Below are positions 1-61,957 of a stretch of 61,957 bases of DNA, in pieces. The number at the start of each line of letters is the position of its first letter. Position 1 is the stretch's first letter. The position numbers and the translations under genes are program-made. Location: NCBI GenBank assembly GCA_015488215.1, contig WFOE01000107.1:1-61957 (forward strand), written 5' to 3'. The DNA comes from Planctomycetales bacterium. Its GTDB lineage: Bacteria; Planctomycetota; Planctomycetia; Pirellulales; S012-138. Below the pieces are notes generated by a model. It saw only the letters and a list, made by a program, of their open reading frames with translations. It was not told the origin of the DNA and ran no database searches.

Positions 1-188
1 GCTTGCGACTTGCGCCGTGCGCCTTGCGCGAGGAGCTTCCGCCCCAGCGGAAATCGAAGCGTTCCTGTTCGTACTCGTGCTCGTCCTTGTCATTCGTAAT
101 CGGCAGCTCGTTATCGCTGCTTGAGAATCGGCCCTCGGCGAGCCGGAGGCGTCAACTTCCGGAGAAACGCGACGAGCAAGCGTTTCCC
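1..188 (+). repeat. Modular intergenic repeat locus A (truncated by window start): heptamer cassette - mini-hairpin - hexamer cassette - REP-like hairpin - spacer
   Basis: 1-30 gcttgcgacttgcgccgtgcgccttgcgcg matches 26018, 50011 and the reverse complement at 49109 and 61885. Mini-hairpin 32-45; TCGTRC hexamers ~68-101; REP-like GGCGAG-CCGGAGGC-GTCA-ACTTCCGG-AG at 137-164. Confidence 0.9.
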
Positions 189-350
189 GTTGTCAAGACA
201 ACGCCCCTAAGTACTCAGCCAATACTCTTTGAGCATACTCGGAGACGATTCTACTCGCCGGGGGATCACCCCTTCCGCATCTGCTCAAAAACGAATTGGT
301 AGCCACAGTGTTTCGAGCAAAAAGTCTCCCGGGCGCCACAAGTGGGTTTT

Positions 351-1202
351 TTATTCCTCTTCCAGCTTTTTCAACAGGCGGCCTAGGTATTCATGGGCTT
401 CCGCGGCGGCCCGGTCCGGCTGGTCGATATAGGGGTAAAGCTCCACGGTCAGCCAGCCCTGGTATCCGCTGTCGCGAATGGCCCGGAGCGTGGCTTCAAA
501 GTCAATGGCCCCGTGCCCGGGAATCAAATGCTGGTGGACCCGCGTGGCAGCGATGTCTTCCAGGTGATAGTGCTTCGTGTGCGCAGCCATTCGGGCCACC
601 CAGTCCTGCGGGTCCTGGCCCACGCAGTAGGCGTGTCCTATATCGAAGTTCAAGCCCACCCAGGGCGAATCGATTCGGGCAACAAACTCCTCGTATTGCT
701 CGAAGCGTTCGATGAGCAGTCCCGGCTCCGGCTCGATGAGCAGCAGCACCTGGACTTCTTCGGCCACTTCGACACAGGGCATCAGTTCGTCGTAGAACGT
801 GCGGGCGGCGTCGGCCCAGCTTTGCCCCGGCTCCAGCGGCCCGCCCGGCTCGGTGGTGATGTTCGGCGCACCCAGTTCCCGCGCCAGCCGCAGCGCCCGT
901 TTCGTATGCTCGCGGCGGATGGCCCGATAGTGCGGATGCTCAATCCAGGATGGGTGCCAGTACGGCTGCCGCGGATCGGCCACGGCGTTCATCATAAAGG
1001 CGTTGATATTGGAAATCTCAAGCCGGTGTTCTTCCAACGCGCGGCGGATTCGCTCCTTTTGCTCGGGCAGCAGTCCGGCGGGCCAAGCGTGGGGTACGTC
1101 GGCCAGCAGCTCGATTCCCTCGTAGCCGGCCTGGACAATGCGGCGGATGGTTTCCTCAATAGAAAAATTGAGATACGCGTTAGAACTGAAAGCCAGCTTC
1201 AT
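351..1202 (-). CDS. Sugar phosphate isomerase/epimerase, xylose-isomerase-like TIM barrel
   Basis: 283 aa ORF with GYEGIEL, LLIEPEP, NFDIGH, HYHLED, H..PGHGAIDF and VELY metal-binding motifs of the AP-endonuclease-2 barrel family. Confidence 0.85.
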   Translation of the reverse strand: MKLAFSSNAYLNFSIEETIRRIVQAGYEGIELLADVPHAWPAGLLPEQKERIRRALEEHRLEISNINAFMMNAVADPRQPYWHPSWIEHPHYRAIRREHTKRALRLARELGAPNITTEPGGPLEPGQSWADAARTFYDELMPCVEVAEEVQVLLLIEPEPGLLIERFEQYEEFVARIDSPWVGLNFDIGHAYCVGQDPQDWVARMAAHTKHYHLEDIAATRVHQHLIPGHGAIDFEATLRAIRDSGYQGWLTVELYPYIDQPDRAAAEAHEYLGRLLKKLEEE

Positions 1203-1278
1203 AAAATACCTCGACCGGCAGGCGCAACGGCGGATTGAAAACGGCGATTTTAGACGTTTGTTAGACGTTCATCAGAAA

Positions 1279-2379
1279 CTACCGTGAAACGGCGGCTCGT
1301 TTGACAAACTGAAGCATGAACTCGCGCAGCTTCTCCACGCCTTCGACCGGCATGGCATTGTAGATCGAAGCGCGAATCCCGCCCACGGAACGGTGTCCTT
1401 TGAGTTCCTTCAGACCCTGGGCGTCCGCTTCGGCCAGGAACGCCCGAGTCTGTTCCTCCGAAGGAAGGCGGAACGTCACGTTCATCAGCGAACGGCTTTC
1501 CGGGTCGGCGTGGCCGATGTAGAAGTCCGGGTACTGGTCCAGCACTTCGTAAAGCAACTGGGCCTTGGCCCGATTCCGCTGTTCCATCGCTTCCAGCGAG
1601 CCGACCTCTTCCAGCAGCCACCGGGTCACTAGCAGCACCACCCAGCAGGCGAACACCGGGGCGGTGTTCAGCAGCGAGCCGGCTTGAGCGTGCTGCCGGT
1701 AGTCGAGCATGGAGTGCAATCCCTCGGGCACCCGGTCCAGCAGCTCGTTGCGGATGATGACTACGGTTACCCCGGCCGGACCGGCGTTTTTCTGGGCGCA
1801 GGCGTAGATCAGCCCGAACCGGTCCACCTCGATGGGCCGGGAAAGAAAATCCGACGAGGCGTCGCACACCAGTGGGCCGCCACCGGGTGGGGGCTCGCGA
1901 AACTGTACGCCCTGGATCGTCTCGTTGGAGGTGAAGTGGACGTAGGCCGCCTCGGGCGAAAGCTCCAGCTCGTCCGGCTGCGGCACGCGACGGTAGTTGT
2001 GCTCCTTGCCGTCGTAGGCCACGTGGACCGTCCCCTCGCGGCGCGCCTCGACCACCGCCTTGTTGCCCCAGGAACCGGTGAGGATGTAGTCGGCCGGCAG
2101 TTTGCTTCCCCGCAGCAGGTTCATCGGCACCATGGAAAACTGAAGCCGGGAGCCGCCCTGGAGATAGAGCACCGTGTAGTCTTCGCCGAAGCGAAGCAGG
2201 CGGCGAAGATTGGCTGTCGTCTCTTCCAGCACCTGGGCGAACCACTCCGAACGGTGGCTCATCTCCAACGGAGAGATTCCAATCCCCTCCAGGGCCACTA
2301 GTTCCCGTTGGGCCTGTTGCAAAACCGGCAGGGGCAATACCGCCGGGCCGGGCGAAAACGTGTAAACGCCTTGGGCCAT
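1279..2379 (-). CDS. serC: Phosphoserine aminotransferase
   Basis: Start moved to MAQGVYTFSPGPAVLP, which has an AAGGA RBS. Motifs EMSHRS, LQGG, NETIQG, DASSD, ACAQKN (PLP lysine), GHRSVGGIRASIYNA. Confidence 0.97.
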   Translation of the reverse strand: MAQGVYTFSPGPAVLPLPVLQQAQRELVALEGIGISPLEMSHRSEWFAQVLEETTANLRRLLRFGEDYTVLYLQGGSRLQFSMVPMNLLRGSKLPADYILTGSWGNKAVVEARREGTVHVAYDGKEHNYRRVPQPDELELSPEAAYVHFTSNETIQGVQFREPPPGGGPLVCDASSDFLSRPIEVDRFGLIYACAQKNAGPAGVTVVIIRNELLDRVPEGLHSMLDYRQHAQAGSLLNTAPVFACWVVLLVTRWLLEEVGSLEAMEQRNRAKAQLLYEVLDQYPDFYIGHADPESRSLMNVTFRLPSEEQTRAFLAEADAQGLKELKGHRSVGGIRASIYNAMPVEGVEKLREFMLQFVKRAAVSR

Positions 2380-2684
2380 GGTTTGTTCCTTGGGCGTGAA
2401 GTTGCGGTGCCGGAACGGGGCGCCGCAGAGAAACTTCCCTGGTCGGCCGTCCACAATGCCCGAATTGTAAGCCGCCGCCTGCTGGCTGAAAAGCGGCTGT
2501 CCTGTGTGGGCGAACAGGGCGTTTGAACCCAGAACACCGGCGGCCAAACCCGAAGGCTACCGCCACCAGGCGATGGCCCGGCCACACCGAACGACGAGCT
2601 CTGTGAAGAAGCAAGCCGTCGAACCAACCGGCCGGAAGCCAGCGAAAACTCCGCTGGTCCGTCTTGGGAACGGCTGGGGAAATG

Positions 2685-4517
2685 TTATTCCCGCTCGATA
2701 GTCAGCACGACACTGCCGGAGTTGTCGCCCAATTGGGACCAGGCGTCGCGGCAACGAACGAACAGTTGGCCGGAGGCCGGAGCCGTCCAGGTGCCTTCGG
2801 CCCCCAGCTCGAACGGCTCGGAAAGCTGGAAGTTCTGAAACAACACGCCCACCAGGCGTCCTTGGCCGTCGGGACGCCCGTCGGCTGTGACCGCTTCCAG
2901 CGAGTCGATTTTCCAGGTGCCTGCGGCCCGATAGCGGTATCCTTCCCCAGCCTGGACCTTGACGCCGGTGGCTTGCCAGCCGGCTTTGGCCTTGACGGTC
3001 ACGGTGCGCCGGGCACCGATGCGCAAAGGACGGAACCGCGTTTTCCAGTCCCAGGCGACCAGGTCGGCCCGAAACCCATTGTCCACGTGTTTGACAAAGA
3101 AGTCGTATTCGAAAGAAATCTGCCGGGCCACGGGACCGTAGACGCTCTGGAAGCTCACGCCCGGCCGTCTGCTCATCAGCCCGATGCCCAGGGCGCGGAA
3201 ACGCGGGGCGTAGTTCGGGTTGTGCATCAGCAAGTAGCACAGCGCCCAACGCCAAGCGTAGGCTTGCCAGGAATCGCCGGTAATCTGCCCGGGGGCGACG
3301 ATTTCGGCAAGCGTTTTAGGCCGCGAGGTTTTTAGATAGGTAATCACCACCGGCGGCACGTCCACGGCCAGTTGGTTGGGTTTCCAATAGTGGCCCAATT
3401 CCGCAATTCCTTCGGCATACCAGGTGGGGCCCGTGGAACCGAAAGTCAACGCACAAAAGGCGTGTACGGCTTCGTGCTGGACCACTTCCGGATTGTCGCA
3501 GGAATAGACAATTGCCTGCACCTGGCTTCCCAGGGTGCGGTGGATGGTTACCCCTTCGCGGTTTCTGATTTTCAGAAAAGCCTCGGGCGGGAAGGTGTCC
3601 GCGGGCCATTGGGCAAGGTCGCGGACGACAAAGCAGCGAATCGGCTGCCGCGGGCGACGGCCGAAGTACTTGGCCAGCAGCCTGTACATGGTTTCCAGCC
3701 TATCCAGCAGGATGCGGACCTTTCGTTCCGAGATGTCGGTATGCAACAGGAAATGGGCCGAACGCACGTCGCGGGGCTTGCGCGGCGCGTCGGAATACCG
3801 GGCGTAACGGTCTTCGGCCTTGGTTCGTCCAGGAGCGGTGTCGCCGTCCTGGGGGGCCAGTTGCACATGGATGGACTTGACGACCCAATCCCCCGTGTCG
3901 AACTTCCACAACAGGGCTTGCAGCACGCGGTCTCCGGGCTTGACTCGCTCCAGGTCGGTCGCTTCCAGGTTGACGTGGGCGTCGCGTGCCAAACGAAACT
4001 TTAGTTGCCGCTTCCGGAACCAGGGATTGCGCGGCACTTGCAGCGTCAGCCCGGAACGCGTGTTGCGAACCACCGCGCCGGTGATGCGGTAGCGGTGGGT
4101 CTTCGTGTCTGCTACCGCTTCCAGACGTTTGACTTCCGGGGTGAGTTTCGGCTTCCAGGTGATTTGCCGCAGCGGCTGCCGGGGCGTTCCCGACCGGCTC
4201 AGCACCGCTTCGACGGTAACGACCATCCCGGGCCGAAGTTGCCGGGGAGCAATTTGTCCTGTGACGCGCACCTGGGATTCAAAGGCGATGACCCCGGCCG
4301 CAAGCGCCACCCCCCGGCGAGCGTCGGTTCCCACATGGCAGACGAACGTGTTGCCTTGGGCGTCGGCCAGTGTGATCCGGGTGGGACTGACAGCTCGCAC
4401 CACTCCGCCGTCCAACCGCGTCTGCTGGACGACGCGTACTGCGCGCTGGGCCGCGGCTGTTGCCAGCAGCGGCCCCAACAGAAGTACCACCACCTGCAAC
4501 CCCAATTTCCCATTCAT
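2685..4517 (-). CDS. Secreted multidomain protein with gluzincin-type metallopeptidase motif and C-terminal beta-sandwich (PA-IL/lectin-like)
   Basis: Signal peptide (LLLGPLLATAAA); QHEAVH (HExxH) followed by WYAEGIAE; C-terminal VKAKAGWQATGVKVQAGE...AAGTW...GRLVG...GQLFVRCRD. Confidence 0.65.
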   Translation of the reverse strand: MNGKLGLQVVVLLLGPLLATAAAQRAVRVVQQTRLDGGVVRAVSPTRITLADAQGNTFVCHVGTDARRGVALAAGVIAFESQVRVTGQIAPRQLRPGMVVTVEAVLSRSGTPRQPLRQITWKPKLTPEVKRLEAVADTKTHRYRITGAVVRNTRSGLTLQVPRNPWFRKRQLKFRLARDAHVNLEATDLERVKPGDRVLQALLWKFDTGDWVVKSIHVQLAPQDGDTAPGRTKAEDRYARYSDAPRKPRDVRSAHFLLHTDISERKVRILLDRLETMYRLLAKYFGRRPRQPIRCFVVRDLAQWPADTFPPEAFLKIRNREGVTIHRTLGSQVQAIVYSCDNPEVVQHEAVHAFCALTFGSTGPTWYAEGIAELGHYWKPNQLAVDVPPVVITYLKTSRPKTLAEIVAPGQITGDSWQAYAWRWALCYLLMHNPNYAPRFRALGIGLMSRRPGVSFQSVYGPVARQISFEYDFFVKHVDNGFRADLVAWDWKTRFRPLRIGARRTVTVKAKAGWQATGVKVQAGEGYRYRAAGTWKIDSLEAVTADGRPDGQGRLVGVLFQNFQLSEPFELGAEGTWTAPASGQLFVRCRDAWSQLGDNSGSVVLTIERE

Positions 4518-4691
4518 GGCGGTTCCTCCCTATCTTCCGGCCACCTTGCCCAGGGCAAGAAGCGGCAAGCTGCCACCGCGGGAGTTCCGGAATCTCTGCT
4601 GTTGACAGGTACAAGGCGCCGTCTGGATGGGAAAGGCACATTGCCCACCTTATTTCCACTGCGCGGCGGCGTTTGTCCCGCTGCTTGCCTG

Positions 4692-9643: not shown

Positions 9644-9672
9644 TTGACGCGGGAGACGGAAGGTGATAGATT
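9644..9672 (+). promoter_or_regulatory. Putative sigma70-type promoter for the 9725 gene
   Basis: TTGACG-N17-TAGATT with a TG extended -10 element, in an AT-richer divergent intergenic region. Confidence 0.5.
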
Positions 9673-9724
9673 TCAGTGGAAATTGAGAATCAGTATCAAT
9701 ATCGCTGGGTGGATGCTGCTCGCC

Positions 9725-37926: not shown

Positions 37927-38316
37927 GGAGCTGCCGTTCCCGGAAGTCTTGGGTCTTGCGTTCTGGGGCCTGAGCAGGAGCTACCGCTCCGCAGGTCTTG
38001 CGTCTTGCGTCCTGGGTCTTGAGCAAGGTGCTTCCGCACCAGGCAGGAATTGCGCTGATACTTGCAACCGGCGTGGAGCTTCCGCTCCAGCGGAAAAACA
38101 AGCGTTCGTACTCCTAATCGTACTCGTGCTCGTGCTCGTGCTCGGAAACGCCATCTTGATCTTGTGGCTAATCGCGAATCGACAACCGGCGAGCCGCTGA
38201 CTTCCGTCGGCGGAGGTGACTCCCACCACAGCCACAGGTTGCTCCCGCACCGAAGCAAGAACAATCGCCAATTCGTGCAATCAGGCAACCGGCGAGTCCG
38301 AGCTTAGCTCGGGGAG
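37927..38316 (+). repeat. Modular intergenic repeat locus D
   Basis: Mini-hairpins at 37927, 37977, 38027, 38075 and 38237; G(G/C)GTCTT heptamer cassettes at 37946 and 37994; hexamer cassette 38105-38145; REPs 38188-38215 and 38291-38316. Confidence 0.92.
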
Positions 38317-42423: not shown

Positions 42424-42704
42424 CGTGGGGCTCCTGTACCACTGGCAAGGGGGAAAGCTCAGCACCGCTCCGGCTCGACGGCGGGAGCAAGCTCCGCTGG
42501 GGGAGATTTTGCCCACTCTGGCTAATCAACCATGCCCGCGCTGTTGCCAAAGGCAAACACAATTTGTCGATTTTCGGCAACAGGGTGCGTTTCGCCCGGG
42601 GGAAGAATCCCTACAATCGGCACCACAGTCCTTCGGTTGCTTGTTTGAGACGGTAAAGAACCCTCCTAAGTGGCTACTGAGCAGAAGCGGATGGCGTGGT
42701 CCCC

Positions 42705-42974
42705 GGCGAGCCGCCAGCTTTGCGAGCCGCCAGCTTTAGCTGGCGGAGGGCGGCACGGTGGTCGTCGACTGGGTGCTTCCGCACCGAAGGGCGTGGGGGC
42801 TTGGAGGCTTGGGGGCTTGAGGCGGAGCTTCCGCTCCGATGGGAGAATAAGCGCCAATTCCTGCAACCGGCGAGCCGGGGACTTTAGTTCCCGGAGGCAA
42901 ACAACGCGCAAGCGTTTTTCTCCGGACCTCCCCGGACTGAAGTCCGGGGCTCGCCATGAAGTCCGGGGCTCGCC
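42705..42974 (+). repeat. Modular intergenic repeat locus E
   Basis: Half + full REP 42705-42748; hairpins 42772 and 42824 around a GGGGCTTG octamer cassette; inverted REP doublet 42869-42896 / 42928-42955; half-REP duplicate 42957-42974. Confidence 0.93.
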
Positions 42975-43032
42975 GAAGCGCCGGCAGAGCCGTGTGCTGA
43001 TTTGCTCAAAAACTATTGCTCAGGTACTTGGC

Positions 43033-43962
43033 ATGACCTCTTGGGAACCGTTTGCCTGGCTGGCCGTGGCGTTCCTGGCGGCTGCCTGCGGCCTGACGCT
43101 TGCCGCCCGGGGCAAGCTCCGGGACACCACGTTGCTTTGGCCGTGGGTCTGGGCCGTACCGGTTCCGGCCGTTTGGGCCGGGGTGGTGTTGTGGGCCGTA
43201 ACGAACCGCCCTCCGGCCGAAGCCGTCTTGCCCTGGCGCTACGCCGCCGGGGTGTTTTCCCTGGCTCCGGCCATCAGTCTGCTGGGCGTGCGCCGCCCGC
43301 ATCATCGCGCCTGGCAGTGGGTCGTTCTGTCGCTGGTAGGCGTGTTGTTTCTCCCGCTGGGGCACTGGGCCTTGGGAGGCGGCTTTTCAGGGCTGCGGCT
43401 GCACTGGCTCTGGCAGAGTTTTTTGCTGGTGTTGCTGACTCTGGGATGGCTTCACTACGGATGGACGCCCCATGCTCCGGCGGCCCTGCTAGTCGTGGTG
43501 GCGCAAGGGCTGTGGCTGTTTCCGGTGTTGGGTCCGCGGTCCTGGCACGCCGCTGGGTGGTTGGACCACCTGGGCGGGATGGCTCTGGCTTCGCTATTGC
43601 TAGGTGCGGCCGTGGCGTGGAGCTGGCTGCGAACCGGGCGAAGTGCGGGCAGGTCCTGCTCCTCGTCCGGCGTCCCTGGCCTTCTTGGCGGCGTTGAACG
43701 GTTGCTTTGTGATTTTCGCTTGTGGTTTGGCGATTTCTGGTTCCAGCGGTTACGCTGGCAGGTGATGTTGGCCGCTCAACGCGCCGGCTGGCCCGTGACG
43801 ATTACTCCCACGGGCCGTTTGATTGTGGAACGCACGGCGGCCGAGTCGGGGGGATGGGAGCAAGCTTTGCAAACCGGCGTCGAACAGTTCCTCAGGCGGT
43901 TCGTCGGCCGAGAGTGGATCCAGCGACGCGTTTCCCCGCACGAGAACCAGGCGCCCCGATGA
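43033..43962 (+). CDS. Hypothetical polytopic membrane protein
   Basis: 7-8 hydrophobic segments; LLGVRRPHHRAWQWVVLSL; ATGA overlap with the phosphatase gene. Confidence 0.7.
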   Translation: MTSWEPFAWLAVAFLAAACGLTLAARGKLRDTTLLWPWVWAVPVPAVWAGVVLWAVTNRPPAEAVLPWRYAAGVFSLAPAISLLGVRRPHHRAWQWVVLSLVGVLFLPLGHWALGGGFSGLRLHWLWQSFLLVLLTLGWLHYGWTPHAPAALLVVVAQGLWLFPVLGPRSWHAAGWLDHLGGMALASLLLGAAVAWSWLRTGRSAGRSCSSSGVPGLLGGVERLLCDFRLWFGDFWFQRLRWQVMLAAQRAGWPVTITPTGRLIVERTAAESGGWEQALQTGVEQFLRRFVGREWIQRRVSPHENQAPR

Positions 43963-45269
43963 CCCAACCCCAACTGCTTGTCCCCGGCGATCTGGAGCTG
44001 CTGCACCGCCAGCGCCAGGCCCTGCAACGCTTGTTGGAACTGACCGGCACGCTGGCCCACCAGGTCCACCTGGACCAGACGCTGGAGAGCATCACGCAAC
44101 TGGCCTGCCAGGCGCTGGATTGCGAACGGGCCACGCTCTACCAGTACGATCCGGACCGGCAGGAGCTGGTCAGCCGGGCCGCCACGGAGCTGGAAATCCC
44201 GGAAATCCGCCACCGCCTGGGCGAAGGCATCTCCGGCTACGTGGCCCAGACCCGCCAGGTACTGCACGTGCCCGATGTGCATCGCGACCCTCGCTGGAGC
44301 GACCAGGTAGACCGCCGCACCGGGTTTCAGACCCGGTGTGTGCTAGCCGCCCCGATTGTCTCGCCCCGGGGCCAGTTGCTGGGCGTGTTGCAGGTGTTGA
44401 ACAAGCGAGGCTGCTCCTTCGAGCCGTTCGATGAGCAGTTGATTACCGCCTTCTGCCAGCACGCGGCCACGGCGTTAGAGCGGGCCCAGATGATCCAGGA
44501 AATGCGGCGTCAGGAAGCCGTGCAAGCCTCGCTGGAAGTGGCTCGCACGGTGCAGCGCTCGTTCATGCCCAAGCAACTCCCCCGCCTGCCCGGTTACGAG
44601 CTGGTCTATTGGTGGTATCCCCACCAGCACGTGGGCGGTGATTATCTGGACATCATCCCCTTGTCGGAAGAAAAAACGCTGCTGGTCATGGCCGACGTAA
44701 GCGGGCATGGGCTGGGACCGGCCCTGTTGATGGCTTCGGTTCGGGCGGCGCTTCGGGCTCTGGTAACCCAACACCACCGGCCGGACGAGCTGCTTATGCT
44801 ACTGAACCGCTCGCTGGCGGCCGACTTGCAAGATGGTCGTTTCGTCACCATGGTATTGGCCGTGTTGGACGTGCGAACCAACCAGGTGGAGTTTGCCAAC
44901 GCCGGGCACGGACCGGCGCTGCACTACCGGGCTGCCGAAGACCGTTTCGACGTGCTCGAAGCGACCGGATTGCCCCTGGGTGTGATGGAGGACGTCCCCT
45001 ACGAGACAGGTCCCCCGTGCCACATGGCCCCCGGCGACTTGCTGCTGCTTTGTACCGACGGGATCGTCGAAGCCCAAAACACCCAGGGCAAGGAGTTCAA
45101 ACTCGCCGGGCTCAAGCAGCTCATTCGCCAGACGGCTCCCCAGGGCGTCCGGGCCGTGGTGGACCAGATTGCAGAGCGGATGCGGGACTACTTCGTGGAC
45201 GAACAGCCGCAGGACGACCTGACCGTGCTGGCCCTCGGCCGTCTGGCGGATGCGGCTGGTGGGCCGTAG
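43959..45269 (+). CDS. GAF + SpoIIE/RsbU PP2C-type phosphatase
   Basis: GAF (GEGISGYVA..DRRTGFQTRCVLAAPI..QVLNK); VGGDYLD, ADVSGHG, NAGH, TDGIVE, QDDLT. Confidence 0.93.
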   Translation: MTQPQLLVPGDLELLHRQRQALQRLLELTGTLAHQVHLDQTLESITQLACQALDCERATLYQYDPDRQELVSRAATELEIPEIRHRLGEGISGYVAQTRQVLHVPDVHRDPRWSDQVDRRTGFQTRCVLAAPIVSPRGQLLGVLQVLNKRGCSFEPFDEQLITAFCQHAATALERAQMIQEMRRQEAVQASLEVARTVQRSFMPKQLPRLPGYELVYWWYPHQHVGGDYLDIIPLSEEKTLLVMADVSGHGLGPALLMASVRAALRALVTQHHRPDELLMLLNRSLAADLQDGRFVTMVLAVLDVRTNQVEFANAGHGPALHYRAAEDRFDVLEATGLPLGVMEDVPYETGPPCHMAPGDLLLLCTDGIVEAQNTQGKEFKLAGLKQLIRQTAPQGVRAVVDQIAERMRDYFVDEQPQDDLTVLALGRLADAAGGP

Positions 45270-45309
45270 CAACCGGCCGGTCCGGCCCTCTGCTGAAGAA
45301 AGACTTGCC

Positions 45310-47043
45310 ATGAACCAATCCAACCGCGTTGACGAAGAACGCCAACTGTTGCTCCAGGCCCAGCAACGCGGCCCGTTGGCCACGCTTGCCGCCTGGGTGC
45401 GTCTTTCCGGCCCGGGGTGGCTGCAAAGCGCGATTACTCTGGGGGGCGGCTCGCTGGCCAGCAGTCTTTACCTGGGCGTGCTGGCCGGCGTGGGCCTGCT
45501 GTGGCTGCAACCGCTGGCGATGGCCTTGGGCATCGTCATGCTGGGGGCCATCGGCTACGTGACGCTCTCCACGGGACAGCGACCGTTCCGGGCCATCAAC
45601 CAATATGTAAACCCGGTGCTGGGCTGGAGCTGGGCCCTGGCCTCCCTGGCGGCCAGCATGGTCTGGTGCCTGCCGCAGTTTTCGCTGGCCACCGGCGTGT
45701 TGCAACAGAACCTGGCCCCAGGGCTGCTGGGACCCGAGGGCCCCCTGGGCGATACGGCCGCCAAGGGACTCATCGCCGCCGTAATCCTGGTGGTGACGGT
45801 GGCCATCACCTGGAGCTACGATTCGGGCCGCTGGGGCATCCGGCTCTACGAGCTGGTGCTCAAGCTGATGGTGGGCCTGATTGTGGTCTGCTTCGTGGGC
45901 GTGGTTTGGGTGCTCCGCAGCCAGTTGGACTGGGGAGAGATTGGGGCCGGGTTTATCCCCGACCTGCGCCGCATCTTCCAACCGGCCCCCGCCTTGCAGC
46001 CTTTGCTGGACCAGATTGCCGAACCGGGCCGAAGCTACTGGGTGCGGCAGATTGTCGCGGCCGGACGCGATACGCTGGTCAGCGCCGCAGCCACGGCCGT
46101 GGGAATCAACATGACGTTTCTGTTCCCTTACTCGCTCCTGCGCCGCGGCTGGACGCGAGAGTTCCGCGGCCTGGCCATCTTCGACCTGGCCACGGGGATG
46201 TTCATCCCCTTTGTGCTGGCCACCAGTTGCGTCATCATTGCCGCGGCCGCCCGATTCCACGGACAGCCGGTCCCAGGACTGGTGGCCGAAGACCGCACCG
46301 CGCCAGGCCGCAAGCCTTCCCCGGCCGAGCAGCGGGAGTATCGCTCGCTGCTGCTGGGCCGCTTGGCCCAGGACCTGCCCGAGGAAGAACTGGCCCGGTT
46401 GAAGCAAAACCCCGCTGCTCTGGAGCAGCGGCTGCGCCAGCTTCCGCTGGCTGAACGCCGCCTGGCCGCCACGCTGGTGAAACGGGACGCCTACGCCCTG
46501 GCCCAATCGCTGGCCGAGCTGGTCGGGCGGCAGGGGGCGCACTGGATTTTCGGGCTGGGGGTGCTGGGGATGACCCTCTCCACGATTACGCTGCTGATGC
46601 TCATCTCCGGGTTTGTCGTCTGCGAGATGTTCGATCTGCCCCAGGGCGGCTGGTCGCACCGGCTCGGCTCGCTGTTGGCGGGCGTGGGTGCGTTGGGGCC
46701 GTTTATCTGGGGCAAGGCGTCGTTTTACCTGGCAGTGCCGACTTCGGTGTTCGGTTTCATCTTGTTGCCGATTGCGTACCTGACGTTTTTCTTTCTGATG
46801 AACCAACCTCGGCTGCTGGGAGACGACATGCCCCGGGGATTCCGCCGCCTGGTGTGGAACCTGCTCATGGGCGTGGCCGCCACGGTAGCCACGGTGGCCA
46901 GCGTAACGATGGTCTGGGTCAAAGCGGGTCGGTGGGGGATTGCGGCCGTGGTGGGGCTGGTCCTGCTGGCCCTGGTGGTGCAGGTGGCCAGGCGAGGCCG
47001 CCCGATTCCGCCCCCTGCGGCCCAGGAAGAAACCTCCTCGTAG
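45310..47043 (+). CDS. NRAMP-like divalent metal cation transporter
   Basis: SGPGWLQSAITLGGGS, AVGINMTFLFPY; about 11-12 TMs. Confidence 0.8.
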   Translation: MNQSNRVDEERQLLLQAQQRGPLATLAAWVRLSGPGWLQSAITLGGGSLASSLYLGVLAGVGLLWLQPLAMALGIVMLGAIGYVTLSTGQRPFRAINQYVNPVLGWSWALASLAASMVWCLPQFSLATGVLQQNLAPGLLGPEGPLGDTAAKGLIAAVILVVTVAITWSYDSGRWGIRLYELVLKLMVGLIVVCFVGVVWVLRSQLDWGEIGAGFIPDLRRIFQPAPALQPLLDQIAEPGRSYWVRQIVAAGRDTLVSAAATAVGINMTFLFPYSLLRRGWTREFRGLAIFDLATGMFIPFVLATSCVIIAAAARFHGQPVPGLVAEDRTAPGRKPSPAEQREYRSLLLGRLAQDLPEEELARLKQNPAALEQRLRQLPLAERRLAATLVKRDAYALAQSLAELVGRQGAHWIFGLGVLGMTLSTITLLMLISGFVVCEMFDLPQGGWSHRLGSLLAGVGALGPFIWGKASFYLAVPTSVFGFILLPIAYLTFFFLMNQPRLLGDDMPRGFRRLVWNLLMGVAATVATVASVTMVWVKAGRWGIAAVVGLVLLALVVQVARRGRPIPPPAAQEETSS

Positions 47044-47077
47044 CCGTTTCCCGTGCCTGGTCGTCGAAGGTGCTGCC

Positions 47078-47878
47078 ATGCAACTTGTTCCCGTGGCCGA
47101 TACGCAACTGGCCGTGCTCCAGCAAGGAGAAGGTCCCCCGGTGCTGCTGGTGCACGGGTTTCCGCTGGACCATTCCATGTGGAAGTACCAAATCGAACAT
47201 CTGGCTCGTACCCATCGGGTCATCGCCCCGGACTTGCGCGGGCTGGGGCAAAGTCCCGTGGCCGGATCGCCCGTGACGATGGAACGCTTTGCCGACGATT
47301 TGGCCTTGCTGCTTGAGGCCCTGGGGGTGCAGCAGCCCGTGCTTTACTTGGGGCTTTCTATGGGCGGCTATATCGCCTGGGAGATGCTGCGCCGCCACCG
47401 GCAGCGACTGCGCGGGCTGGTGCTTTGCGACACCAAAGCCCAGGCCGACACGCCCGAAGCAGCCCAGGCACGCCGCCAGATGGCCGAAACAATCCTCCGC
47501 CAAGGGATGCAGCCGCTAGAGCAAGCGATGCGGCAAAAGCTCTGGGCCCCCCACAGCACCACCCGGCGCGATGAGGACCTGGAACATGTGCAGCAGGTTA
47601 TCGCCCGGACCAATCCCCGAGGAGCCGCCGCGGCCCTGCTGGGCATGGCCCAACGAGCCGACGCCACGGAGTTGCTCCCCCGGATCGACTTGCCGGTGCT
47701 GGTCGTCTGCGGGGAGCAGGACGTGCTTTCCCCGCCGGAACAGATGGAAGCGATGGCCCGGGCCATTCCCGGTGCCCACTTTGCGCTGATTCCTCAGGCT
47801 GGCCACATGGCCCCGCTGGAAAACCCTGCAGAGGTCAACGCCCGGTTGGACCGCTTCGTGCAGTCGCTAGATAACTGA
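47078..47878 (+). CDS. Alpha/beta hydrolase (3-oxoadipate enol-lactonase-like)
   Basis: LVHGFP, DLRGLG, GLSMGG nucleophile, GEQD, AGHMAPLE. Confidence 0.92.
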   Translation: MQLVPVADTQLAVLQQGEGPPVLLVHGFPLDHSMWKYQIEHLARTHRVIAPDLRGLGQSPVAGSPVTMERFADDLALLLEALGVQQPVLYLGLSMGGYIAWEMLRRHRQRLRGLVLCDTKAQADTPEAAQARRQMAETILRQGMQPLEQAMRQKLWAPHSTTRRDEDLEHVQQVIARTNPRGAAAALLGMAQRADATELLPRIDLPVLVVCGEQDVLSPPEQMEAMARAIPGAHFALIPQAGHMAPLENPAEVNARLDRFVQSLDN

Positions 47879-48004
47879 CCGCCGAAATACCACTGCCACA
47901 GAGACAATCCGGTTGGCATCCGGGGGCGGATGGAAAACAATGACTTGCCGGAACCCTTTACCGGCATCGCCGCCAGCCGGACGAACCCGTTTGAAGGAAC
48001 TCCG

Positions 48005-48835
48005 ATGATCCCGCTTTACGACAACATCCCCTCGCGCACTACGCCGTGGGTCAACTACCTGATTGTGGCGCTGACCACCCTGGTGTTCGGCTTGCAATTG
48101 CTGGACCAGTACAACGACAACCGCTGGCAACTGGTCGAACGGTTCGGCATGGTGCCGCAGCGGGTGTTGCACCCGGGCACGACCGTGGTGATGGATGTGC
48201 CGCAAGTGGTCGCCACGCCCCTGGGGCCGCGGGTGGTACGGGTGCAGAAGGTCATCCCGCCAGCGGCGGTGCCGGAGTGGCTGACTCTGCTAACCTGCAT
48301 CTTTTTGCACGGGGGGTGGATGCACTTTCTGGGCAATATGTGGTTTCTCTACATCTTCGGGGACAACGTAGAAGACCGCCTGGGCCACGCTGGGTTTTTG
48401 ATCTTCTACCTGGCAAGCGGCGTGTTGGCCAGCGCGGCCCATCTGGCAGCCAATCCGGATTCGCCGGTACCCACCATCGGCGCCAGCGGAGCAATCGCCG
48501 GGGTGATGGGAGCCTATTTCATCTTTTATCCCAAGGCCCAGGTCGTCGCCCTGATTCCGTTGTTTTTCATCTTCTATTCGGTGGTGCTGCCGGCGCCGGT
48601 GTTTTTGGGCTTTTGGTTCTTCATTCAGTTCTTTCAAGGGATTGGTTCGATTACCGCGGGCCAAAGCGGCGGTGTGGCCTGGTGGGCCCATATTGGCGGG
48701 TTCGTCGTGGGGATGCTGGTGGCCCGCTCGCTCATCCCCACCCGGCTGACTCGTCCGCCGGTAACAGAGCGCCGCCCCGGAACCGAACGCATCGGTATCT
48801 ACCGCTACCGCCCGCGGTATCCCATGGGCCCATAG
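48005..48835 (+). CDS. Rhomboid family intramembrane serine protease
   Basis: MIPLYDNIP, FLHGGWMHFLGNM, GDNVED, IGASG, WAHIGG. Confidence 0.95.
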   Translation: MIPLYDNIPSRTTPWVNYLIVALTTLVFGLQLLDQYNDNRWQLVERFGMVPQRVLHPGTTVVMDVPQVVATPLGPRVVRVQKVIPPAAVPEWLTLLTCIFLHGGWMHFLGNMWFLYIFGDNVEDRLGHAGFLIFYLASGVLASAAHLAANPDSPVPTIGASGAIAGVMGAYFIFYPKAQVVALIPLFFIFYSVVLPAPVFLGFWFFIQFFQGIGSITAGQSGGVAWWAHIGGFVVGMLVARSLIPTRLTRPPVTERRPGTERIGIYRYRPRYPMGP

Positions 48836-48888
48836 GAAGTCAACCGGTAGAGTCTTTCAGCGCCGGCGGACGCTGATGTTCCGCACCT

Positions 48889-49236
48889 AGCGAGCCCCGG
48901 ACTTCAGTCCGGGGAGAGCCGATTGAAAGAAAAGGCTTTTTCTTGCGGTGGTGCGGAAGCACCAATCGCCGACGGCCGTGCCGTCCTCCGCCAGCTAAAG
49001 CTGGCGGCTCGCCGTTTGCGAAAATCAGCGATTGTTCTCGCATTGGTGCGGAAGCGCCTCGCTCAAGACCCAAGACGCAAGACCCAAGACCTGTAGAGCA
49101 AAAGCTCCCGCGCAACAGCGCACGGCGCAAGCCGCAAGCCGATTCCCGCCCAGCGAGCCCCGGACTTCAGTCCGGGGAGACAAGAAGAAACGCTTTTGGT
49201 AAGTTTTTCTCCGGGAGCTGAAGCTCCCGGCTCGCC
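48889..49236 (-). repeat. Modular intergenic repeat locus F, between convergent genes
   Basis: REPs at 48889(+), 48986(-), 49152(+) and 49209(-); hairpins 48950, 49045 and 49095; CAAGAC(C/G) heptamers 49061-49091; GCGCAAG heptamers 49109-49140. Confidence 0.93.
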
Positions 49237-49276
49237 GGTTTGACACGTCGGGGCGGTCGGTCCCCCGTGACCGAGG

Positions 49277-49825
49277 CTACTTTTTCGGCGGGCGATAGGC
49301 CACGAGGCGCTGGGGGTTGGTTTCCAGCGTGGGTCCCCCGATCAACTCGATGCAGTACGGTATGGCCGGAAACACCGCATCGAGACACTCGGCAATCGCC
49401 CGCGGTTGGCCCGGCAGGTTCACAATCAGTGTGTTGCCTCGGGTGCCGGCCGTCTGGCGGGAGAGGATGGCCGTGGGCACTTTTTCCAGCGAGACTTTGC
49501 GCATCAGCTCGCCGAAGCCCGGCAACAGCTTTTCGCAAACCGCTTCGGTCGCCTCGGGCGTGATGTCCCGGGGAGCAGGTCCCGTGCCGCCCGTGGTAAC
49601 CACCAGCGCACAGCGGTGCTGGTCGCACAGTTCCACCAGCGTTTGTTCCAGCACAGGCCGCTCGTCGGGGACGATTCGCCGCAGGGGTTCCCAGGGGGTG
49701 AGCAGCACCTGTTGCAGGTACTCCACGATGGCCGGGCCGCTGCGGTCTTCGTACTGGCCCTCGCTGGCCCGATCCGAAGCGGTCACAATCCCAATCCGTA
49801 CCGTGGTGGAACTATCCTGGTTCAT
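49277..49825 (-). CDS. mog: Molybdopterin adenylyltransferase
   Basis: IGIVTASDRAS.GQYEDRSG, TTGGTGPAPRDITPEAT, LPGFGELMR, AILSRQTAG, NLPGQP, AIPYC. Confidence 0.96.
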   Translation of the reverse strand: MNQDSSTTVRIGIVTASDRASEGQYEDRSGPAIVEYLQQVLLTPWEPLRRIVPDERPVLEQTLVELCDQHRCALVVTTGGTGPAPRDITPEATEAVCEKLLPGFGELMRKVSLEKVPTAILSRQTAGTRGNTLIVNLPGQPRAIAECLDAVFPAIPYCIELIGGPTLETNPQRLVAYRPPKK

Positions 49826-50264: not shown

Positions 50265-50278
50265 ATAGGGGAGAGCCG

Positions 50279-53801: not shown

Positions 53802-53822
53802 GCATGGGTTCGAGCTGACAAA

Positions 53823-53866
53823 GCTCCCTCGCATCTTCCCGAAGCGGATGCGAGGGAGTTTTCTTT
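53823..53866 (+). terminator. Intrinsic terminator after the BON gene
   Basis: 12-bp stem ctccctcgcatc...gatgcgagggag followed by ttttcttt. Confidence 0.75.
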
Positions 53867-54071
53867 ACCCCCTGGCCGGCCGCTGCTACCGCTAGCACCC
53901 GCCCAGGGGAAGTTTCTTTCCCAGGAGAAAATCGCCGAACAACCGGAAAAACCTGCAAGATCGTCGCCACCGGAGGCGATATGAAAGGTAGTCCCGCCGC
54001 CGGAGGGCAGCGGGACGTGGTCCGAAACCAAGAAGCTTCTCCAGTCCGTACCCCAGACTGAGGAACGGCAC

Positions 54072-57936: not shown

Positions 57937-57998
57937 ACGGGCCGGTGCAGCCTGGGCACACTTCCCCGAACGGTTCCCCAACTCCCAAGAGGGCCACG

Positions 57999-58850: not shown

Positions 58851-58873
58851 CCCGCTCAAAAAACCGAACTGCC

Positions 58874-59293
58874 ATGCCGCTGAAAACGCATCGGGACGAA
58901 CTCCCTTCGCTGAACCTGACGCCGATGATCGATATCGTGTTCCTGCTGATCATTTTTTTCATGGTCAGCACTTCGTTTTCGCAGATGGAACGCGACATCC
59001 GGCTCCAGGTTCCGCGGGTGAAAAGCACCGGCCCGCTCACCCCCGCCCCGGAAAAAAAAGTCATCAACGTCTATCGCGACGGGCGGATTACCCTCGACGG
59101 ACAACCCGTCACCCTGGAAGAACTCCAGCGGCGGCTGCGCCACGCCCGAAAACTCTACCCCGACCAGGGCGTGGTAATCCGCGGCGACGGGCAAGGCACT
59201 TTCCAGCGCGTGGCCGAGGTGCTGGATAGCTGCCGCCAGGCGGGCCTAAAGGAACTGGCCGTCTCCGTGCAACCCATCCGCATAAGGAAGTAA
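58874..59293 (+). CDS. exbD: ExbD/TolR subunit
   Basis: LNLTPMIDIVFLLIIFFMV with the essential TM Asp; VVIRGD..F..V..VLD.C..AGL. Confidence 0.94.
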   Translation: MPLKTHRDELPSLNLTPMIDIVFLLIIFFMVSTSFSQMERDIRLQVPRVKSTGPLTPAPEKKVINVYRDGRITLDGQPVTLEELQRRLRHARKLYPDQGVVIRGDGQGTFQRVAEVLDSCRQAGLKELAVSVQPIRIRK

Positions 59294-59300
59294 CCCGGCA

Positions 59301-61442
59301 ATGCTCGTCGCCGTAGCTGTTCCGGCTTCGGTGCCCCTGTGGCTGTGGGTCATCTGGGCCCTATTGGGCCTGGTGAGCCTGGCGTTGCTGGTCGTGTTGC
59401 TTACTCCCTGGGGGCGTTCGCGGCCGCTGCGCAAATGCGTGCTAATTTCGCTGATGGTCCACGCGCTGCTGCTGACCTATGCGGCCACGGTGAAGATTCT
59501 GAGCGGCTACCGCGGCGTCCCGCAGGAAGAGATGGCCATTCGCATCGTGGACATTTCGACCGAACCGGAACCAGAATCCGCTCGGCAACCAGGCGAGCCG
59601 CAGCCCTGGGAACAGATGGACGAACCCCCGCCGCAGTTGCCCGCGGACATGCCCCGGCGCGAAGTGCCCCCGGCCGCAGAACCCGGTGCACCGGAGCGTC
59701 GGGCCGCGGAGCGGCAAGGCGCTAAGAGAACTCCCGTTCCGCCAGCTCCGGCGGCGAAGGAAACTTCCCCGGAAGAACCTCCTCCGCCGAAGGAATTGCC
59801 GCTGGCCGAACCCGTGCCGAAGCGCCCCGTCGCCTCGGCCCCCGCCCAGGCCACTCAGGCGCCGCAAGTGTCGGAGCCCAAGCGGCCGGCTCAGCCACCG
59901 GAGCTTCAGACGCCCAAGGAAGCCTTGCCCGGGCCGCCGCCCCACCGGGCCCGGCTGGAACCTTCCCCCGGCCAAGCCGCCGTGGTGCAACAGCACCCCG
60001 GGCCGGTGCTACCGGAGCTGAAGACTTCTCCGGAAGCGGAGCTGCTCCAGGGGCAGCTTCCCGCCGGCGGAAGCGAGTTGCCCGTTCCCCGATTCGACGC
60101 CCCGGGACCGCAGGCCCCCAGCGCTGCCGAACTGGTGCAGCAACACCGGCCGGAACGCTCCCCCCCAGCGACACCTCGACTCATCCGGCGCCGCAAGCCA
60201 GCGGCGATTGCCCAGGGAGAACCGGAGCCTGAACCCTCGGCCGATGAGCTCAAGCCGCTTCGGCCACTTGTGCCGGTACGGCTGGAACGCCCCGAGCAGG
60301 AGCCGCTCGCTGGGAAAGCCTCCCCGCTGGATGCTTCGCTTGCCCTGCGGACCGACCCCCAGCGGATGCAGCGCGTGCTGGAACAAGGCGGCAACGAAAA
60401 GACCGAGCAGGCGATTCAGTTGGCCCTGGCCTGGCTGGCCGCCCAACAGCAGCCCGACGGAAGCTGGTCTGCCACCGCTCATGGCGGAGGGCGCGATTTG
60501 CGCACGCTGGGCCAGGCTCGGCCCAAGGCCGGCACCCGAGCCGAAACGGGCATCACCGGGCTGGTGTTGCTGGCGTTTCTGGGAGCCGGACACACGCACG
60601 CTCGCGGGCCTTACAAGCAGAACATCGCCCGAGGGTTGGACTACTTGCTTGCTCAGCAGGACCGCAGCAGCGGCTCGCTCTCGGGCCGCGCCACGCTTTA
60701 CGCGGCCATGTATTGCCACGGCATGGCCACGCTGGCCCTGGCCGAAAGCTACCTGATGACCGGCGATCCCCGGTTGAAAGAACCGCTGCGGCGGGCCGTC
60801 GGCTACACGCTGAAAGCCCAACACCCCTACACCGGCGGTTGGCGCTACCGGGTCGGCGACGCCCTGGGGGACACCAGCCAGTTGGGCTGGCAGTTGATGG
60901 TGCTGCACTGTGGTCGCATGGCCCGAGTGCAGGATAGCCCCCTGGCGTGGCAGCGGGCCGGGTGGTTTCTGCGCTCGGTTTCTTCCGGCCGCCGCGGAGG
61001 GCTGGCCGCTTACCAGGTGGGCCATCGCCCCTCCCCGACGATGACCGCCGAGGCCCTCTTTTGCCGCGTGCTGCTGGGCACTCCGGCCGACGACCCGGCC
61101 TTGCAAGAAGCGGCCGACTATCTCATGGACCACCTGCCCCGACAAACCGAGCCGAACTTCTACTACTGGTACTACGGCACGCTAGGGCTGTATCACTTGC
61201 AGGACGAACACTGGCGGCGGTGGAACCAGACGCTGGTGCGGACCCTGCTGGCCCTGCAAGAACAGCACGGTCCCCAGCGTGGGAGCTGGACTGCCCGTTC
61301 GGCCTGGGGAGGCTACGGCGGTCGGGCCTTTACGACCGCGCTGGCCGTCATGTCGCTGGAAGTCTATTACCGCTACGTGCCGGCTTATGCTCAGGCCCCG
61401 GGCAAACGGGCCGCCCGAGGGCCCGGCCTGCTGCGGCGCTAG
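59301..61442 (+). CDS. Membrane-anchored TonB/TolA-like protein (SxxxH TM, Pro-rich linker) with C-terminal prenyltransferase/squalene-cyclase-like alpha/alpha barrel
   Basis: TM2 LISLMVHALLL; about 260 aa Pro/Glu-rich linker; QW repeats WLAAQQQPDGSW, YLLAQQDRSSG, LKAQHPYTGGWRY and LLALQEQHGPQRGSW; YYWYYGT. Confidence 0.85.
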   Translation: MLVAVAVPASVPLWLWVIWALLGLVSLALLVVLLTPWGRSRPLRKCVLISLMVHALLLTYAATVKILSGYRGVPQEEMAIRIVDISTEPEPESARQPGEPQPWEQMDEPPPQLPADMPRREVPPAAEPGAPERRAAERQGAKRTPVPPAPAAKETSPEEPPPPKELPLAEPVPKRPVASAPAQATQAPQVSEPKRPAQPPELQTPKEALPGPPPHRARLEPSPGQAAVVQQHPGPVLPELKTSPEAELLQGQLPAGGSELPVPRFDAPGPQAPSAAELVQQHRPERSPPATPRLIRRRKPAAIAQGEPEPEPSADELKPLRPLVPVRLERPEQEPLAGKASPLDASLALRTDPQRMQRVLEQGGNEKTEQAIQLALAWLAAQQQPDGSWSATAHGGGRDLRTLGQARPKAGTRAETGITGLVLLAFLGAGHTHARGPYKQNIARGLDYLLAQQDRSSGSLSGRATLYAAMYCHGMATLALAESYLMTGDPRLKEPLRRAVGYTLKAQHPYTGGWRYRVGDALGDTSQLGWQLMVLHCGRMARVQDSPLAWQRAGWFLRSVSSGRRGGLAAYQVGHRPSPTMTAEALFCRVLLGTPADDPALQEAADYLMDHLPRQTEPNFYYWYYGTLGLYHLQDEHWRRWNQTLVRTLLALQEQHGPQRGSWTARSAWGGYGGRAFTTALAVMSLEVYYRYVPAYAQAPGKRAARGPGLLRR

Positions 61443-61612
61443 CACGTGCCGGAGAAGAGGCTCCCCTTCGGCAACGTCGGGACTGAGCTTCCTGCTTGTG
61501 TACCGTAAAGCCCGGGTAAAGTATCCAGCCAGGGGGCTTTGCGTACATGGGCAGATGATTCGCCCGGTGATTCGACTTCCCGTTAGTGTGTGTTCGGTTT
61601 GTTTTTGCCACT

Positions 61613-61957
61613 GGCAAGCCCCGGACTTCGGTTCGGGGAGATGAGAGGAAACGGTCTTTTGTGACTTTTCTCCGGGAGCTAACACTCACGGCTCGCCGAG
61701 TGCCGATTGCGACTCTACACGCTCGTTTATTCTTGCCTCGGAGCGGAAGCTCCCAGTGGTCACGGCCCGGCCGCCTCCGCCGACTGAAGTCGGCGGCTCG
61801 CTGAGTGCGATGAGCGATAACGAGCTGCCGATTCCGAATCGAGTACGAGCACGAGCGTTTGTTTTCCGCTGGTGCGGGAGCACCCGCGCAAGGCGCACGG
61901 CGCAAGCCGCAAGCCTATCCTCGCCCGGAGCGGAAGCTCCCCTCCAAGCCCCCACAC
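61613..61957 (-). repeat. Modular intergenic repeat locus H (truncated by window end)
   Basis: Inverted REP doublet 61613/61670; hairpin 61740; REP 61775; hexamers ~61828-61857; hairpin 61871; heptamer cassette 61885-61915; hairpin 61927; octamer cassette 61941-end. Confidence 0.92.

Follow-up and report, generated by a model that had tools for sequence, protein, structure and literature searches.

A hairpin repeat family in a Planctomycetales genome, probably of the class 3 TnpA-Y1 type, and its inverted doublets between genes

Hairpin copies in the window and in the genome

The 61,957-nucleotide (nt) contig WFOE01000107.1 of a Planctomycetales bacterium (the window, which is contig C107 of the assembly here called G000) carries copies of a short hairpin repeat, the unit of which consists of a leader (G/A)GCGAG, an 8-nt stem arm, a 4-nt loop, a second 8-nt arm and a trailing AG. 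An earlier sequence-only reading had taken this unit for a hairpin like repetitive extragenic palindromes (REP sequences), selected for its structure and read by a Y1 HUH enzyme, and had counted about 15 full copies. Accepting at most one mismatch in the leader and at least seven of eight stem pairs, we find 13 full copies, all of them between crude gene calls. A copy lies at each of the positions named in that reading (26256+, 42722+, 48986-, 61775-, 48889+, 49152+, 42928-, 49209-, 42869+, 38188+ and 61613+), those at 137+ and 61670- are extras, and two truncated copies are also present (42705-42721 and 42958-42974). The copies and the features between them are as follows.

137..164, + strand: hairpin copy GGCGAG-CCGGAGGC-GTCA-ACTTCCGG-AG, 7/8 pairs, 137 nt from the contig end
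26256..26283, + strand: single copy between convergent genes, stem CCGCCAGC/GCTGGCGG, loop TTTA
38188..38215, + strand: single copy, stem CCGCTGAC/GTCGGCGG with one T.G wobble, loop TTCC
42705-42721, + strand: truncated copy (leader, 5' arm and partial loop), a full copy directly after it
42721-42748, + strand: full copy, stem CCGCCAGC, abutting the truncated copy (joint feature 42705..42748)
42869..42955: heterotypic doublet of B-type arm, 31-nt spacer and A-type arm
42869-42896, + strand: B-type arm of this doublet, CCGGGGAC/GTTCCCGG, one G.T
42928-42955, - strand: A-type arm of this doublet, CCCCGGAC/GTCCGGGG
42958-42974: truncated copy beside this doublet, a partial duplicate of its A arm
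48889..49013: heterotypic doublet of the long (69-nt) spacer class, A arm at 48889-48916 (+)
48950-48963: GGTGCGGAAGCACC module inside the spacer of doublet 48889..49013
48986-49013, - strand: B arm of doublet 48889..49013, CCGCCAGC
49014..49151: linker between two doublets, made of other repeated modules, with CAAGACCCAAGAC-type repeats and GCGCAAGCCGCAAG
49045-49058: GGTGCGGAAGCGCC module in this linker
49152..49236: heterotypic doublet of A arm 49152-49179 (+), 29-nt spacer and B arm 49209-49236 (-, CCGGGAGC)
61613..61697: doublet near the contig end, 29-nt spacer
61613-61640, + strand: arm of this doublet, leader GGCAAG, CCCCGGAC/GTTCGGGG, one G.T
61670-61697, - strand: arm of this doublet, CCGTGAGT/GCTCCCGG, 7/8 pairs
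61775..61802, - strand: copy AGCGAG-CCGCCGAC-TTCA-GTCGGCGG-AG, 155 nt from the contig end

Both ends of the window thus bear hairpin copies. The looser pattern GCGAG-N20-AG occurs 24 times in the window against 12.3 +/- 3.4 in 100 shuffles (largest 20); roughly half of these 24 matches are chance, and the hairpin copies themselves are not. Rfam at gathering thresholds gave no match over the whole window. The linker at 49014..49151, taken with its neighbouring arm, is 79-84% identical to many composite copies of about 150 nt in G002, a genome of the same genus. As an aside, the cumulative GC skew of the window climbs until about 54 kb and declines after.

The whole G000 assembly (4.29 Mb in 303 contigs, 64% GC, rated 96.5% complete, with 3143 crude gene calls covering 82% of the genome) holds 652 copies by a regular expression allowing at most one defect, and 643 of them lie outside the gene calls, 236 past a contig's last gene. 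With the strict pattern GGCGAGCC-N16-GGAG we find 418 copies, against none when the pattern is read backwards. Among 481 perfect CGAG-led hairpins, position -5 is G in 462 and position -6 is G or A in 373 and 74 respectively, while the two positions after the hairpin are A (470) and G (464), which bears out the conserved leader and trailing AG of the sequence-only reading. We also sought a conserved target site outside the unit; going upstream from the leader, information drops to background in about 8 nt, the sole signal there being a C at -7 (348/481). A copy is found no more than 300 nt from 124 of the 606 contig ends, so the repeats evidently break the assembly.

The copies are fourfold commoner between convergent genes (123) than between divergent ones (31), the baselines being 469 and 509. 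Neighbouring copies are mostly convergent, with their AG ends facing (167 '+-' pairs), and the spacers of such pairs cluster at about 30, 40 and 67-72 nt and belong to a few recurring families. Among doublets with a spacer below 80 nt, 111 of 152 combine an arm of the CCC type (mostly CCCCGGAC) with one of the CCG type, and such a heterotypic doublet, folded as single-stranded DNA (ssDNA), forms two separate hairpins with the two leaders pairing mutually, as seen for 49152..49236. The population is thus a mosaic of inverted alternating types with few linker classes, resembling the bacterial interspersed mosaic elements (BIMEs), and the orientation of its doublets follows the flanking genes (35 against 10).

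Other modules share these gaps, namely GGTGCGGAAGCACC (308 copies), CAAGACCCAAGAC (252) and GGCGCAAGCCGCAAG (205). A second small hairpin, GGTGC-GGAA-GCACC, which lacks the GCGAG foot, occurs in 308 copies at no more than one mismatch, 219 of them near GCGAG hairpins, and is found in the window at 48950-48963 and 49045-49058. The 252 copies of CAAGACCCAAGAC, counted with the same tolerance, include 141 within 200 nt of a hairpin. Short repeats biased to purines or pyrimidines (CTTGGGGGCTTGGAGGC... and its complement CAAGACCCAAGACGCAAGACC) also stand beside hairpins, in the window at 42795-42830 and 49066-49093.

Stem covariation and strand

The covariation of the stem was assessed on the 418 strict copies, which were chosen by their flanks and outer CC/GG alone so that the six inner pairs were free to vary. 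Inner pair cells are Watson-Crick in 94.2% of cases, against 59.7% (maximum 62.8%) in 500 shuffles of the 3' arms among copies, and in 325 of the 418 copies every inner pair is intact. Two common complementary states occur at each of five inner pairs (pair 3, for example, is GC in 239 copies and CG in 141, and pair 6 is GC in 251 and AT in 144), and pairing is perfect in every one of the eight commonest stem types, which have 6 to 101 copies apiece. As repeat copies are not independent of one another, this result says that each successful subfamily keeps its helix and is no count of events.

The same was found across genomes. Alignment A2 comprises 88 distinct rows, from 79 distinct rows taken at the gene loci described below, which were chosen by GGCGAG and a KTNA loop only, and from 12 window copies, which were chosen in the knowledge that they pair. 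In this alignment 92.8% of cells are paired, against 68.3% when shuffled and 34-49% when slid, both sides have changed in 174 cells against 58.5 +/- 8.1 (reached in 0/500 shuffles), and seven of the eight pairs covary. These data clearly show that structure, rather than stem sequence, is conserved, both in G000 and between genomes, as the covariation check proposed with the sequence-only reading had anticipated. In addition, wobbles on the leader strand of A2 are G.T or T.G in 46 cells and A.C or C.A in 10, owing mainly to a G.T that recurs at pair 2 across many genomes, and this family-wide excess fits a structure read on the leader strand.

Y1 genes in related genomes and their absence from the assembly

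Among 30 relatives the hairpin pattern has 1065 strict copies in G002 and 29 in G001, both of the same genus as G000, whereas G023, of another family and assembled as a single 6.06-Mb contig, has 49 copies of a mismatched type and G024 has 10. G002 holds four paralogous Y1-like genes and one fragment, with proteins 45-53% identical, and three of the four adjoin inward-pointing GCGAG hairpins. The fourth (locus L043, contig C879 of G002) showed none in the GCGAG scan; a looser scan for a GAG foot found flanking hairpins there, with stems CCCCCGAC and CCCCGCAC and the foot CAAGAG rather than GGCGAG, and the foot therefore varies among paralogues within one genome. Homologues in G012, G023 and G024 are likewise flanked by hairpins, each with stems of its own.

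A scan of one genome per species turned up 491 relatives, mostly Planctomycetota assemblies, from which 79 loci were retained. Inward GAG-footed hairpins of 8-4-8 geometry lie within 300 nt upstream in 52, downstream in 47, on both sides in 40 and on either side in 59 of these 79 loci, against 8 and 6 loci in reversed-sequence controls. Outward hairpins are common too (32 and 32 loci), because doublets occur there as well. Selecting by GGCGAG and a KTNA loop alone gave 170 matches in 45 loci, of which 137 pair in 8/8 positions and 21 in 7/8; the reversed control gave six matches, none with six or more pairs. Across the family only the GAG is conserved, plus usually a C two bases before it. The expectation that the same hairpin would flank a Y1-type gene is therefore borne out in G002 and in 59 of 79 homologous loci, and fails for the G000 assembly, which contains no such gene. 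Together with the covariation, this flanking supports the core of the sequence-only reading, namely a REP-like hairpin of a Y1 HUH enzyme with its structure under selection.

In a sample of 200 genomes from the phylum, scanned for the pattern only and so bearing on no phylum-wide correlation of hairpins with genes, a large excess over control was seen only in G000 and in G203, a member of the same class with 147 matches against 10. In four other gene-bearing genomes, where the doublets are homotypic, the pattern is matched about 229, 93, 35 and 30 times, the controls giving 15, 20, 14 and 28; a fifth such genome has no pattern matches above control. The mismatched stem type (CCGGGAGC...GCGACCGG) is present in G023, G024, G232 and G234.

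Two further observations concern G002. At about 1930-2390 of its contig C477 (locus L014) lies a different, shorter Y1-like gene (MPDHIHLF ... YVRWNPVRHRL) with a weak PF01797 match, GCGAG hairpins before it and a direct repeat GCGAG-GTGCGCGG-CTTTAG-CCGTGGGA on both sides; this gene may encode an enzyme of a second type that acts on related repeats. Its loci L112, L114 and L118 have stem types that are absent among the common types of G000 (CCGCGTGC/GCACGCGG, CCCCGGGC, CCGCCGGC and CCCACGGC), and some of these have TT after them instead of AG.

The protein encoded by the hairpin-flanked genes is, judged by domain score, motifs and predicted fold, a Y1 HUH enzyme. The Pfam family Y1_Tnp (PF01797) is matched by six of six proteins, narrowly, at 23.3-36.2 bits for a cut-off of 23 and from about residue 65 onwards, while NCBIfam REP_Tyr_transpos (32.6-41.8 bits, cut-off 80) and transpos_IS200, the IS200 TnpA family (19.7-26.5 bits, cut-off 55), stay below threshold, the latter scoring lower than the former. 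Alignment A1 shows the motifs N-H-[VF]-H and WWT. All 66 sequences examined share H99, W140, Y161 and Q165, with H101, W139 and T141 conserved in 90% or more of them; the tyrosine motif reads YVLH[ER]Q in G023 and G024 and is one residue shorter in the G002 copies. The N-terminus is also conserved (WxLTxTTYGTWLPGD), with T9, T11, Y13, G14, W16, P18, G19 and G23 invariant in the same 66 sequences. An AlphaFold model built from them (pLDDT 86.1) has as its best Foldseek matches in the PDB the ISDra2 TnpA, TnpA_REP and IS608 TnpA (2xm3, 4er8 and 2vih; E about 1e-4, target TM 0.49-0.68), and a sequence profile finds IS200/IS605 transposases (2f4f at 2.6e-6, ISDra2 at 4.5e-5), TnpA_REP not being in that list.

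The repeats, then, are intergenic, very numerous and set in inverted doublets, and the same foot-plus-hairpin units flank a Y1 gene, pointing inward, in relatives; we consider them, with good confidence, to be REP-type hairpins of the 'class 3' branch of Y1 HUH transposases (TnpA-Y1). By analogy with IS608, ISDra2 and the E. coli TnpA_REP, the enzyme would bind the folded hairpin on the leader strand when the DNA is single-stranded, would use the foot bases as the guide that places its cut, and would cut and rejoin the DNA through its tyrosine. Units and doublets may thereby spread as gene-less derivatives of a unit made of the gene and two hairpins. The role of CGAG as guide, which the sequence-only reading had also proposed, would be that of the corresponding bases in IS608 and TnpA_REP, and cleavage of ssDNA at the hairpins is presumed on the same footing.

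One orthologous locus bears on this derivation. A Y1 gene of G002 sits between two conserved genes, which, to judge by their motifs, may encode the iron-sulfur subunit and the flavoprotein subunit of a succinate dehydrogenase or fumarate reductase, and the orthologues of which lie on one contig in G000 with 89% and 91% nucleotide identity; the gap between them is 336 nt in G000 against 1038 in G002. In G002 an A-type hairpin (+) overlaps the stop codon, the Y1 gene follows on the opposite strand, and a B-type hairpin (-), CCGCCGAC, lies 23 nt before its start codon. In G000 an A-type hairpin (+), a 29-nt spacer and a B-type hairpin (-) identical to that of G002 precede the same downstream module. 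A global MAFFT alignment of the two loci misplaces the left part, and the comparison rests on the right anchor (B arm and module) and the raw sequences. The G000 doublet thus occupies the place of the gene-bearing unit of G002, by a change in either direction, loss or gain, as would be expected if doublets derive from such units without their gene.

Several results weigh against the class 3 reading. First, no enzyme gene was recovered: G000, complete to 96.5%, gave no match to Y1_Tnp PF01797 up to E = 10 and none to REP_Tyr_transpos (NF047646) at E up to 1, a tblastn search with the G002 proteins found no Y1 gene, and G001, with its 29 strict copies, is likewise without one. A hidden Markov model of the clade, made from 66 of the 79 locus proteins and run on all six frames of G000, had its best match at 14.5 bits on contig C106, in an alternative frame of another gene, and we rejected it as chance. 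Secondly, no two of the 111 A/B doublets are identical. Within each of the three length classes that are most frequent among them, A arms are 94-97% alike, B arms (several types) 77-81% and spacers 53-77%, the equal-length alignment used possibly understating the identity of spacers. This speaks against recent copying and for selection on the hairpins in place, something that a purely selfish model has no need of. Thirdly, the three wobble-bearing copies named in the sequence-only reading do pair on the GGCGAG-first strand, yet the excess over all of G000 (G.T or T.G 54, A.C or C.A 38; binomial p = 0.12) is not significant, so that its claim of selection on one single strand is supported family-wide and only weakly in this genome. 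Finally, doublet orientation has no link to local GC skew (Fisher p = 0.53, the skew being weak on short contigs), and this test shows no tie to the replication strand.

The missing gene may have been either lost or left unassembled, as assembly of a gene with these repeats on both sides would yield a very short contig. Contigs of four runs containing the window (X1-X4) were compared at 80% likeness with the G002 stretch L012:1600-4240; the conserved gene and the repeats were covered, and the two Y1 genes were uncovered in X1 and nearly so in X3 and X4, where missing coverage of a part counts as no evidence of its absence. Run X2 yielded a 536-nt contig with a 159-nt match to the G002 Y1 gene (30 other letters, about 81% identity), at a depth of 17.6 against 21.3 for the contig on the conserved neighbouring gene, which gives a weak hint of a related Y1 gene in the sister sample.

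The rival that survives best holds that the hairpins are now host elements, no longer mobile, which serve as folded RNA or DNA at gene ends (for instance in 3' protection of mRNA, insulation of transcription or binding of a nucleoid protein) after loss of the enzyme. The absence of a Y1 gene from the assembly, the far better conservation of arms than of spacers with no two doublets alike, the excess in convergent over divergent gaps (123 against 31, for baselines of 469 and 509) and the orientation of doublets with flanking genes (35 against 10) would all suit it. We nonetheless judge it improbable: the origin of the family with a Y1 gene is clear in relatives, so that a host role could only be a later layer; none of the seven hairpins in 42500-49400 scores as an intrinsic terminator in a simple scan, each being followed by purines and by no T run; orthologous sites differ among congeners, so that no single site is conserved; and the X2 contig hints at a related gene in the sister sample. 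On the matter of sites, five G001 segments orthologous to window genes are without a hairpin, and G002 has other stem types at the corresponding gene ends. The picture from these sequence comparisons is one of turnover between species with no recent burst in G000, selection or lineage sorting keeping the hairpins intact; the G000 population looks old and kept under selection at its hairpins.

A second rival takes the hairpins for ends of ordinary autonomous insertion sequences (IS) of the IS200/IS605 kind, together with deletion derivatives like miniature inverted-repeat transposable elements, rather than for products of a single-locus 'REPtron'. The profile hits to 2f4f and ISDra2 (2.6e-6 and 4.5e-5) with TnpA_REP unlisted, the several gene copies in G002 and the placing of class 3 between IS and REPtron in the portion of Quentin et al. 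(2018, BMC Genomics 19:475, PMC6006769) that treats it lend this some colour. We hold it very unlikely, since paralogues only 45-53% identical indicate no recent IS burst, REP_Tyr_transpos outscores IS200 TnpA (33-42 against 20-27 bits, neither reaching its cut-off), units without a gene run to hundreds where genes number 0-5, and no TnpB domain in G000 exceeds its cut-off (PF07282 giving one zinc-ribbon-like match at 21 bits for a threshold of 26.3). The idea that GC-rich palindromes have piled up by chance, or that the repeats are an artefact of assembly, could cite the chance half of the loose window matches and the 124 of 606 contig ends near copies; it is refuted by the reversed control (418 strict copies against none), by the same family in independent assemblies and by coverage of the repeats in all four runs, and deserves practically no credence.

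Class 3 hairpins remain our preferred reading, and we think it rather unlikely that G000 has truly lost the Y1 enzyme while purifying selection maintains its roughly 650 hairpins, set at gene ends in oriented, heterotypic doublets. Were this so, the host would have co-opted a class 3 REP population as a signal that works through structure or at the RNA level, and the locus shared with G002 would have caught the step from a gene-bearing unit to a gene-less doublet. No branch of the IS200/RAYT superfamily has been studied less than the class 3 Y1 enzymes; their defining paper, in the part that bears on this, has few intact examples and asks for experiments (PMC6006769). The present family is a large example of selfish or semi-domesticated DNA spread by such little-studied ssDNA transposases. 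Its genus forms a data set with hundreds to more than 1000 copies per 4-Mb genome, at least eight pairing stem variants and an invariant foot, in which three related genomes carry about 1065, 418 and 29 strict copies beside four, no and no genes respectively; it suits asking what the enzyme reads (shape, foot or loop) and whether REP populations outlive their enzyme. It also shows that repeats which break short-read assemblies may hide the enzyme gene from bins.

Comparison with known systems

The REP sequences and BIMEs of E. coli with their enzyme TnpA_REP, associated with the names of Ton-Hoang (2012) and Messing (2012), are reportedly intergenic palindromes with a conserved 5' tetranucleotide foot, GT[AG]G, and E. 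coli BIMEs are said to combine two REP types in inverted order with few linker classes and to depend on a class 2 enzyme. Our repeats resemble them in being intergenic, footed and set in an inverted two-type mosaic, and in the Y1 HUH fold of the enzyme (4er8 among the top matches). The foot differs, GCGAG (481/481 by construction) in place of GT[AG]G, and REP_Tyr_transpos scores reach 33-42 bits against a cut-off of 80. Di Nocera (2013) sorts REPs into those with GTAG and those with CGTC tags, and neither CGAG nor GGCGAG appears in its main text.

With the REPINs of Pseudomonas the inverted doublet unit is shared, and the orthologous locus of G000 and G002 fits a derivation from gene-flanking hairpins. 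In the REPIN/RAYT system, linked with Bertels and Rainey (2011), a pair of inverted REPs separated by a short spacer reportedly acts as the unit and may descend from the hairpins on either side of the RAYT gene; its arms are said to be alike and able to pair into one long hairpin. In G000, unlike this, 111 of 152 doublets join unlike arms that fold separately.

The ends of IS200/IS605 elements are described, where the same source treats them, as ssDNA hairpins in subterminal position, each having a 4-nt guide on the 5' side of its foot (PMC6006769). Our family shares footed ssDNA hairpins with IS608 and ISDra2, which also give the best sequence and fold matches of the protein, and differs in that full IS copies are absent, any tnpB in G000 stays below its cut-off, and hairpins without a gene number in the hundreds.

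The closest match is class 3 of TnpA-Y1, which the sections of Quentin et al. devoted to it describe as rare and found mainly in Planctomycetes, Acidobacteria and Proteobacteria, and define by NHVH, W[TA], a tyrosine motif with Q (Y----Q) and a longer conserved N-terminus, placing it as an intermediate between IS and REPtron (PMC6006769). Its hairpins, with up to about 600 copies in Solibacter usitatus, have a foot given as CnGA and are called 'atypical secondary structures'; the class 3 rows of Table S1, such as CCGAG-CCGCGACC-GTAA-GGGAGCGG, ACGAG-CCGGAAGC-GTGA-GCGACGG and CAGAG-CCGCGACC-GTTA-GGGAGCG, show a foot that has GAG at its end, followed by two 8-nt arms around a GTNA loop, with an internal 2x2 mismatch (PMC6006769). 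Judged by those parts of the paper, G000 departs from class 3 in several respects: its stems are perfect 8-bp helices (325/418) rather than internally mismatched ones and so are not 'atypical' in that sense, its loops are mostly TTCA or TTTA, its foot is GCGAG, at least eight stem types coexist, its doublets pair unlike arms and the Y1 gene is missing from the assembly. The points of likeness are as follows. GAG stands directly 5' of the stem, the geometry is 8-4-8 and most relatives have GTNA loops; several copies surround a Y1 gene encoding NHVH, WWT, Y...Q and a conserved N-terminus; copy number is high in some hosts; and Planctomycetes are the main host phylum. The relatives' proteins show NHVH with W[TA], Y----Q and N-terminal conservation alike, and, in relatives only, the gene is flanked by hairpins with a CnGA(G) foot (59/79 loci, 40 on both sides). 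In addition, the class 3 entry for Planctomyces limnophilus is nearly the sequence present in G023, G232 and G234. Our assignment draws on these motifs and on the near-identity of the hairpins, rather than on an alignment with the published proteins (ADG69454.1 and ABJ83664.1). The kind of element is thus already known, and what G000 adds to it are perfect stems, TTCA and TTTA loops, many stem types, heterotypic doublets and a very high density.

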